From: Candidatus Poribacteria bacterium | GTDB lineage: Bacteria > Poribacteria > WGA-4E > PCPOR2b | Direction: 5' to 3' | NCBI GenBank assembly: GCA_963665285.1 | Contig: OY762266.1 | Coordinates: 4,704,001 to 4,768,000, forward strand | Length of the DNA stretch: 64,000 nt | Part shown: one piece after another, positions 7,523 to 8,653 of the stretch | Position numbering within the stretch: the first letter of the stretch is position 1 | Layout of the letters: each line of letters opens with the position of its first letter | Notes under the pieces: model-generated | Database searches by the model: none | Told to the model about the DNA's origin: nothing | What the model saw: the letters and a program-made list of their open reading frames with translations, nothing else | Made by a program: the position numbers and the translations under genes

Positions 7523-8653
7523 ATGAAACAATCGCTAACAGTAACAAAACTGACCTACCTCTTGGTGATGGGAGCACTCCTGATCGGTGTTTGCTCGTTG
7601 ATTGGCACGTCAACCGCACAGGAAGCATCCCTTAGAATGACAGGGGACCGAGCGACAATTTCTCGTACCTACCCAATCGTTTCTCGCATCTACGAGGAGG
7701 TCTTTAATATGGGAAAACTGGAGCAAGCAGATACGCTAATTGCCGCTGAATATATCGACCATAACCCAATCGGTCTAGGGGGTAAATCTGGCATAGAGGG
7801 CTTCAAACAGACTGTAAGGGCGTTACGCTTCGCCTTTCCCGACCTGCGTTTCACAGTTGAGCAGATAATTGTCAACGGAGATCAGGTGGTGGCTCGCACG
7901 ACCATGCAGGGTACTCACAAAAATAGTTTTTTGGGGATTGACCCAACTAACAAGCAGGTAACAGTGTCAGGATTCGACATCTATCGGATCGCCGATGGAG
8001 TCGTTGCGGAACGGTGGGGCACACTTGATGGACTCACGCTCATGCAACAGATGGAGGTGTTGATTCCGATGGCGTGGCAAAACACCTTGCTCGGTGTGCT
8101 GAACCAAGAAGAGCGAAAGCCCTTGATTGATCAGATGCGTGCGGCTGCTGAAAAGAAGAAAGACGTTTTCAGGAGCGATCGGCAGCCCGTAACGGAACTC
8201 GTGCATATAGATCAGTTGATGCATCAGTTCCAAGCAGACACAGGTTATGTTCGCCTAGTCGCGCTGCTTTCCCCCGGCTGACCGAAATGCCGTCGGGGGG
8301 TCTCCGAAATAATAAAACTGTTTGAAAGGGTTGGGGATGAACGACTGCGGGCTTACCTTATCTGGCAACCGATCCTCAATAGCGATAATCGGGTCTCGGC
8401 AGAGAGACGCGCTCATGAGTTTACCCACGAAAGATTTACACATTATTGGGATAGCAACAAAGCCTCTGGCGACCTGTGGAAGGATGTGCTCAGCTTAAAA
8501 GAGACAGCGTGGGATGTCTATGTATTGTATGGCGGGTCAGCAGAATGGACAGACAAGCCACCGGATCCGGATCTCTGGTTTCCCCAACTACAGCATGCGA
8601 CACGTGCACGATTTGAGGTAGTAACCAAACAACTCCTCCGAGAAATGCCGTAG
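7523..8653 (+). CDS. Putative selenoprotein: signal peptide + SnoaL-like ester-cyclase domain + thioredoxin-like UxxC domain (Sec at 8279-8281)
   Basis: Frame stays open 123 codons past TGA: LLSPG-U-PKCRRG...YLIWQPIL...HYWD...AWDVYVLY...W...PPDPDLW..QL to TAG 8651-8653; SECIS-like hairpin follows; extended CDS abuts next gene. Confidence 0.85.
8293..8307 (+). promoter_or_regulatory. Candidate bacterial SECIS hairpin
   Basis: TCGGGG-GGT-CTCCGA stem with G-rich loop, starting 11 nt after the UGA. Confidence 0.65.

Follow-up and report, generated by a model that had tools for sequence, protein, structure and literature searches.

The window analyzed here, a 64,000-nt stretch of a Candidatus Poribacteria contig, contains a gene that database entries end at an in-frame TGA but that, judging from its sequence and that of its relatives, almost certainly encodes a single 376-aa selenoprotein, an exported product of two domains whose synthesis would depend on SelB-mediated readthrough of the UGA. 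The features of the locus, numbered by window position, are as follows.

7442..7469, forward strand: sigma70-type promoter, TTGACA-16 nt-TATAAT (12/12 consensus match)
7511..7515, forward strand: Shine-Dalgarno sequence AGGAG (from sequence; retained upstream of the own-genus copies)
7523..8653, forward strand: full coding sequence, 376 aa, with the in-frame TGA read as U (Sec, residue 253)
7523..7618, forward strand: predicted signal peptide or membrane anchor, aa 1 to ~32 (hydropathy; cleavage site inferred)
7679..8050, forward strand: SnoaL-like (NTF2-fold) domain, aa 53-176 (PF07366, E 1e-37)
8051..8185, forward strand: variable linker, aa 177-221 (length and sequence differ between families)
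8186..8650, forward strand: uncurated TlpA/ResA-type thioredoxin-fold domain with UxxC, aa 222-376 (predicted fold)
8279..8281, forward strand: UGA read as selenocysteine, U253 (TGA in 33/33 carriers; Cys in homologs)
8288..8290, forward strand: resolving Cys256 (invariant, 30/30 Poribacteria loci)
8293..8307, forward strand: bacterial SECIS hairpin TCGGGG-GGT-CTCCGA with a 6-bp stem and a GGU loop (conservation and covariation)

The reading frame opens with ATG at 7523, meets a single internal TGA at 8279-8281, runs on for 123 sense codons and closes with TAG at 8651-8653; 10 nt separate this stop from the start of the next ORF at 8664. The first-pass annotation had proposed this extended frame, its close spacing to the next gene and a 376-aa product containing U-P-K-C, and re-reading the sequence bore out each of these points, translation with TGA as U giving U253-P-K-C256. 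The promoter at 7442-7469 has a 16-nt spacer, without the long spacer of the MerR type, and a sigma70-type promoter was also recognized by eye in 15 of 16 loci from the same genus and from genus g4. A palindromic intergenic repeat at 7322-7385 of the window occurs in very many copies, with contig depth in the thousands, and a second family of REP-like hairpins recurs across the host genome.

Database entries for this protein consist of 190-252-aa 'ester cyclase' sequences and separate 101-112-aa fragments. Among 103 database matches to a two-domain query, 102 terminate at the UGA, in LLSPG or LLSPN, which is the truncation by annotation pipelines that had been predicted, and a systematic annotation error that the present reading corrects. 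As for an assembly error at the TGA, a possibility raised by the first-pass annotation, the codon is present in all 33 genomes carrying the domain, and a contig from run X4 spanning 7356-9000 is identical (0 differences), although X4 may be the source sample and hence not independent. RNA-library contigs from two studies bridge the UGA, such contigs being no proof of transcription.

Downstream, positions 8664-11928 encode a spermidine-synthase-like membrane protein and, after it, a protein-L-isoaspartate methyltransferase whose N-terminus contains a hydrophobic segment; this pair accompanies the selenoprotein gene in 21 of 30 Poribacteria loci. The spermidine-synthase-like gene was considered as a functional core partner and rejected, being found in only these 21 loci and missing in genus g3 and family f3. 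Neighboring genes change between the two Poribacteria families, and the fusion of SnoaL and Sec-redoxin domains that the first-pass annotation described is kept in 30/30 loci; because the neighbors differ between the families, we regard the fusion itself as the conserved unit.

Decoding of the in-frame UGA

The machinery for selenocysteine insertion, to which the first-pass annotation had tied its reading, is complete in the host genome (99% complete): selA, selB, tRNA-Sec and selD all scored above cut-offs, the first three clustering at C1:1,112,918-1,116,462, and the sole tRNA with a TCA anticodon is tRNA-Sec. Host selD (L017, G000:C1:1,669,431-1,670,351) encodes a selenoprotein too (U-x-x-K), with an in-frame TGA of its own. 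Across the phylum, selA was found in 163 of 176 genomes and the Sec domain in 33 of 176, which represent 5 of 31 genera in two families; every one of these 33 carriers combines one in-frame TGA with selA. Where the loci were compared (30 of the 33 carriers), TGA occupies the same site, 121-123 codons follow it and SnoaL lies in frame upstream, and in the remaining three a SnoaL match lies directly upstream, as judged by coordinates. Differences past the UGA among the Poribacteria loci fall mostly at third codon positions (1808, 1454 and 5813 at the three codon positions), indicating purifying selection on the sequence beyond the codon.

The residue at the position of U253 was surveyed in two sets of homologs. 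At E <= 0.001 the domain has 1,164 homologous representatives, and the best 150 were aligned to give 156 domain rows, with 110 Cys, 4 Asp, 4 Trp, 1 Ser, 1 Gly and 36 gaps at the U position; Cys therefore accounts for 110 of the 120 rows with a residue there. Many of the gap rows begin just past the site and may represent cut Sec genes. The metagenome set, the best 80 of 512 loci by similarity to one protein, contains 87 domains, 68 with TGA and 19 with TGC or TGT. Cys or TGA at the aligned position, by which the first-pass annotation proposed to judge its own claim, is thus what both sets contain in the main.

Two variants within the family deserve separate mention. Seven loci (L080, L083, L085, L116, L125, L127 and L138) contain two adjacent domain paralogs, one with TGA and an intact hairpin and the other with Cys and a decayed hairpin, which are possibly a selenium-dependent and a selenium-independent member of a pair. 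In five proteins (P0017, P0018, P0022, P0030 and P0049), D-x-x-S or W-x-x-S replaces CxxC; their subclade, with a support of 96, includes the CxxC protein P0013 and is probably a redox-inactive branch, or else one in which gene callers rendered UGA as Trp.

The G-rich-loop stem that had been noticed 11 nt past the UGA is present at 8293-8307, with 17 nt from the UGA to the loop. An identical hairpin is found in 30/30 Poribacteria copies, and among the fourfold-degenerate codons of these 30 loci, 5/5 are fixed within the hairpin compared to 0/19 outside. In the metagenome copies, the stem retains its six pairs in 66 of 68 TGA domains (45 of 47 distinct sequences) and in none of 19 Cys domains (0 of 16 distinct), counts that include kin that are not independent and hence carry no statistical test, and compensatory two-sided changes occur at three stem positions among the TGA copies. 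Since the hairpin covaries where the codon is TGA and degenerates where it encodes Cys, the family constitutes a clean natural experiment on SECIS function.

Folding energy by itself does not single out the hairpin at 8293-8307. The isolated hairpin has an energy of -6.6 kcal/mol, with a z of 0.59 over 42 nt, and the minimum-energy fold of a 62-nt stretch (-11.4 kcal/mol) is a structure other than the SECIS hairpin; the hairpins of metagenome TGA copies average -8.8 kcal/mol. The SECIS model in the available text of PMC13188914 specifies a loop of 3-9 nt with G first, a stem of 4-16 bp, a UGA-to-loop distance of 16-37 nt and an energy of -7.5 kcal/mol or lower, and the Poribacteria hairpin agrees with its geometry (GGU, 6 bp, 17 nt) but, at -6.6 kcal/mol, misses its energy limit. 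A hairpin pattern modelled on 8293-8307 follows 134 of 232,657 six-frame genomic TGAs, which gives a background rate only. The selD hairpin is different and stronger (-19.5 kcal/mol over 45 nt) and lies outside this strict pattern, so the scan is not a selenoprotein census.

That the UGA is instead a Trp codon, an assembly error or a genuine stop that leaves a split gene or pseudogene seems barely credible. The split database entries ('ester cyclase' plus 101-112-aa fragments) and the energetically weak hairpin that would suit termination are set against a TGA fixed in 33/33 genomes of 5 genera, where termination would sever a folded domain right at the catalytic residue, and against a hairpin that tracks TGA and is degenerate in Cys copies. 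A Trp reading conflicts with homologs that have Cys 110 times and Trp 4 times and with a genome whose only TCA-anticodon tRNA is tRNA-Sec.

Architecture of the predicted protein

The N-terminus contains the only strongly hydrophobic 19-mer of the protein (Kyte-Doolittle 2.23, compared to a maximum of 0.72 elsewhere), and an N-terminal hydropathy peak of 1.6-2.8 is present in 30/30 orthologs. This hydropathy and an A-x-A-like site suggest export outside the inner membrane. The signal peptide named in the first-pass annotation is upheld as far as the hydrophobic N-terminus and the A-x-A-like site go, and export is a prediction from hydropathy.

For the domain that follows, the whole protein scores 128.8 bits against PF07366 (cut-off 28.4), and the best structural matches are TsrD, IdmH and SnoaL, with TM 0.83-0.86 over the target; polar and aromatic residues of the domain are invariant among orthologs. 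The score against NF033407, the SnoaL/DnrD methyl ester cyclase model, was 39 bits, below its 200-bit cut-off. Of the earlier designation 'SnoaL-like cyclase', the fold and family are sound, whereas 'cyclase' is a family label, with no cyclase substrate or pathway in view. Other Poribacteria lineages (G063, G065, G066, G075 and G076) have long ORFs in which SnoaL domains stand in tandem, as many as four per frame; no Sec domain was found with them.

The linker is modelled with pLDDT <50 over much of its length, and the whole-protein model (pTM 0.49) contains no confident packing between the SnoaL and thioredoxin-fold domains; as modelled, the two domains may act independently. The first-pass annotation had further supposed that termination without selenium would yield a SnoaL-only form, and this part we correct: the terminated product would retain the linker and ~31 residues of the thioredoxin domain. 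Neither the 103 matches to the two-domain query nor a set of 462 candidates, the latter being weak evidence, included a fused form that was longer or of the Cys type.

Modelled separately, aa 222-376 reach a pLDDT of 96.6 and a pTM of 0.92, and U253 opens the active-site helix, the thioredoxin-fold position that had been claimed for the UxxC; the best structural match is a DsbE-like protein (Z 14.3). Pfam and NCBIfam gave no meaningful match over this region (DCA16, at E 0.07-0.28, is noise), and PF08534, PF00578 and the NCBIfam ResA/TlpA models did not match the domain at E up to 1. When 119 homologs were compared to Pfam, the domain region had at best weak Redoxin or Thioredoxin_4 matches, three homologs matching Redoxin at E 0.004-0.008 only. 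A PDB sequence search returned weak thioredoxin matches only (best E 0.011), and a plasmid collection contained no match. In the ESM Atlas, queried with a Cys homolog, the nearest clusters were unnamed and mostly from Acidobacteriota, with TlpA/AhpC-like clusters at 0.85-0.86.

The domain has its own motifs, W-x-P, W-D, W-D-V-Y and P-x-x-W. The presumed cis-Pro site, placed from its position in the model only, with a TlpA profile alignment (39 columns) stopping short of it, is Ala in this and most copies and Pro in 9 of 30 Poribacteria copies. A further motif, W-M-H, occurs in 79 of 87 metagenome copies, and its His is absent from all 30 Poribacteria copies.

Relatives in metal operons and origin of the fusion

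Among the best 80 of 512 metagenome loci, tblastn detected MerT in 49, MerR in 48, zf_CopZ in 41, TlpA in 20, HMA in 10 and DF in 7. One or more of MerR, MerT, zf_CopZ, HMA and DF occurred in 68 of the 80 loci, and in 45 of 49 loci of at least 3 kb, a proportion that applies to loci picked by likeness to one protein and has no background set behind it. Cys homologs of the domain are fused to MerT, HMA and DF-family domains, and SnoaL was found in 0/80 of these loci outside Poribacteria. A promoter with a 20-bp spacer and a palindrome like the ZntR consensus given in the available text of PMC1526738 is present in 26 of the 80 loci; because of that resemblance, the sensed metal need not be mercury.

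Nine of these metal-operon loci (L075, L082, L089, L096, L107, L108, L110, L113 and L125) have, downstream of the Sec-thioredoxin gene, a candidate second hidden selenoprotein, an exported HMA-like domain with U-M-G-U (two UGAs) that apparently runs on into a thioredoxin domain and resembles the UxxU metal-binding family. In L132, L147, L153 and their kin, where the gene comes immediately after merR, a DF-family (NF049942) thioredoxin-like domain is fused to the C-terminus of the Sec domain. An exported, uncharacterised protein of ~195 aa with weak HTH matches lies at the end of MerT-TlpA operons in nine loci (L080:3113-3709 and eight others).

The Poribacteria locus departs from a MerR-type metal operon in its 16-bp promoter spacer, its lack of MerT and a MerA below cut-off. 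In the host genome as a whole, merT had 0 matches and merA stayed below cut-off, and queries with the MerR, MerT and zf_CopZ proteins of the operons found no match. A quickly built tree, which covers a subset of 104 rows without Poribacteria genera g3 and g4 and has weak backbone support, places the Poribacteria domains among the metal-operon Sec forms (support 86). Most Cys copies in this tree are nested within the TGA group, which suggests that Sec-to-Cys reversion may have occurred in the family.

We consider it probable that the Sec domain came from this widespread, uncurated MerR-operon family, and that in Poribacteria it became joined to SnoaL and came under an ordinary promoter, away from any metal operon. 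In that case a domain of metal-regulated operons would have become part of a fusion that looks constitutive, in a dominant sponge symbiont. The lack of merT and of a merA above cut-off, a promoter with a 16-bp spacer in place of the 20-bp boxes, and the absent W-M-H are signs of a changed role in Poribacteria.

Possible functions and comparison with known systems

We tentatively propose that the protein is a constitutive small-molecule redox or detoxification enzyme that combines the SnoaL pocket with the U253/C256 site. SelB almost certainly reads the hairpin at 8293-8307 and inserts Sec at the UGA, giving a product in which a predicted signal peptide precedes a SnoaL-like pocket that is joined by a flexible linker to a thioredoxin-fold domain, with U-P-K-C where the active-site helix begins. 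In the proposed mechanism, the SnoaL domain would hold a hydrophobic small molecule outside the inner membrane; the U253 selenolate would attack or reduce the bound electrophile, peroxide or disulfide, C256 would resolve the resulting adduct into a selenenyl-sulfide, and the U253/C256 site would be re-reduced by a partner of the DsbD/CcdA type. None of the neighboring genes points to a substrate or an electron donor. A bolder version, which we regard as quite unlikely, is that a metal-handling domain from MerR operons and an NTF2-type pocket together make a new exported selenoenzyme that breaks carbon-halogen or carbon-metal bonds, with the UxxC selenolate and a separate binding domain acting on substrates such as sponge halogenated aromatics or organomercury.

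The family's association with metal genes in 68 of the 80 metagenome loci (MerR, MerT, zf_CopZ, HMA or DF) and the fusion of Cys homologs to MerT or HMA raise the possibility, which we lean against, that the ancestral job has been kept, with the UxxC as a trap, located outside the membrane, for soft metals or organometals (Hg, Cd, Zn, Pb, methylmercury) and SnoaL housing the organic part. Ala at the presumed, model-assigned cis-Pro site is consistent with such a trap in light of the available text of PMC2757866. However, the Poribacteria genome and locus contain no merT, merA, MerR of that clade or MerR-type promoter, the conserved His of W-M-H has been lost from the Poribacteria copies, and 9 of 30 of these copies have Pro at the model-assigned site.

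It is unlikely that the protein is a TlpA/ResA-like protein-disulfide reductase whose clients are other exported proteins and in which SnoaL acts as an accessory or dimerisation module. A reductase would account for the best structural matches (DsbE, ResA, CcmG and DipZ) and the predicted signal peptide, and UxxC redoxins are an established class in Table 1 of PMC13188914. Yet neither Redoxin nor AhpC-TSA models match the domain, its identity to the matched structures is 5-20%, the presumed cis-Pro is missing in this copy, and a true TlpA gene is present in addition in 20 of the 80 metal-operon loci, so that the family cannot simply be equated with the TlpA of these operons.

Very unlikely, in our view, is a Sec enzyme of the deiodinase-like type in whose SnoaL pocket halogenated aromatics from the sponge host would be reductively dehalogenated. 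Halogenated tyrosines are made by sponges, and sponge metagenomes are among the holders of the RNA libraries. Deiodinase 3 shares the fold (Z 11.5), and the available text of PMC13188914 records UxxC in bacterial deiodinase-like proteins; against this, deiodinase ranks only 24th among generic thioredoxin folds, PF00837 and NF038285 do not match, and the family's context elsewhere is metal handling.

The gene almost certainly encodes a real, misannotated selenoprotein from an uncurated UxxC thioredoxin-fold family, whose fusion to SnoaL was seen here only in Poribacteria. Table 1 of PMC13188914 lists 119 prokaryotic selenoprotein families, among them UxxC redoxins and several metal-linked selenoproteins; it includes no SnoaL fusion, and 'SnoaL' and 'Poribacteria' occur 0 times in the available text. 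Gauged against Pfam, NCBIfam and that table, the 119-family inventory gains both an uncatalogued family of selenoproteins and a new architecture. A literature search found nothing that pairs a selenoprotein with SnoaL, and a full-text search for Poribacteria and selenocysteine found no paper with both as its subject by title or abstract. The available portions of bioRxiv 2022.07.06.499078, PMC13326102, PMC12013277, PMC13745706, PMC2757866 and PMC1526738 do not name the Sec-domain family.

The domain matches none of the metal-linked selenoproteins NF045683 (MerT/CopZ fusion), NF041115 (UxxU), NF049942 (DF) and NF040730 (SaoT). Its relatives resemble them in being fused to or located beside MerT, HMA and DF-family proteins under MerR-type control, whereas the Poribacteria gene stands outside that metal-operon context. 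With SnoaL, TsrD and IdmH (PF07366) the N-terminal domain shares sequence and fold, retaining the W-x-x-x-D acid as in IdmH and TsrD; unlike them, it is predicted to be exported, is fused to a Sec domain and has no polyketide genes in the flanks examined. TlpA, ResA and DsbE (CcmG) have the same fold (Z 12-14, rmsd 2.5-3.1 A), an N-terminal export signal and an active site with two-residue spacing in common with this protein, which differs in that Sec replaces the first Cys, identity is 5-20%, a SnoaL domain is added and the locus shows no link to DsbD, CcdA or ccm genes. Closest in kind are the UxxC redoxin, Prx-like and thiol-disulfide-isomerase-like selenoproteins (PF08534, PF00578, cd02966) in the table of PMC13188914: although the Poribacteria domain is set apart from these rows by its lack of a Pfam or NCBIfam model, its own W/P motifs and a presumed cis-Pro site that is mostly Ala, it shares with them the TlpA/ResA-type fold, the UxxC at the N-terminus of the active-site helix and an in-frame UGA followed by a SECIS within the coding region.
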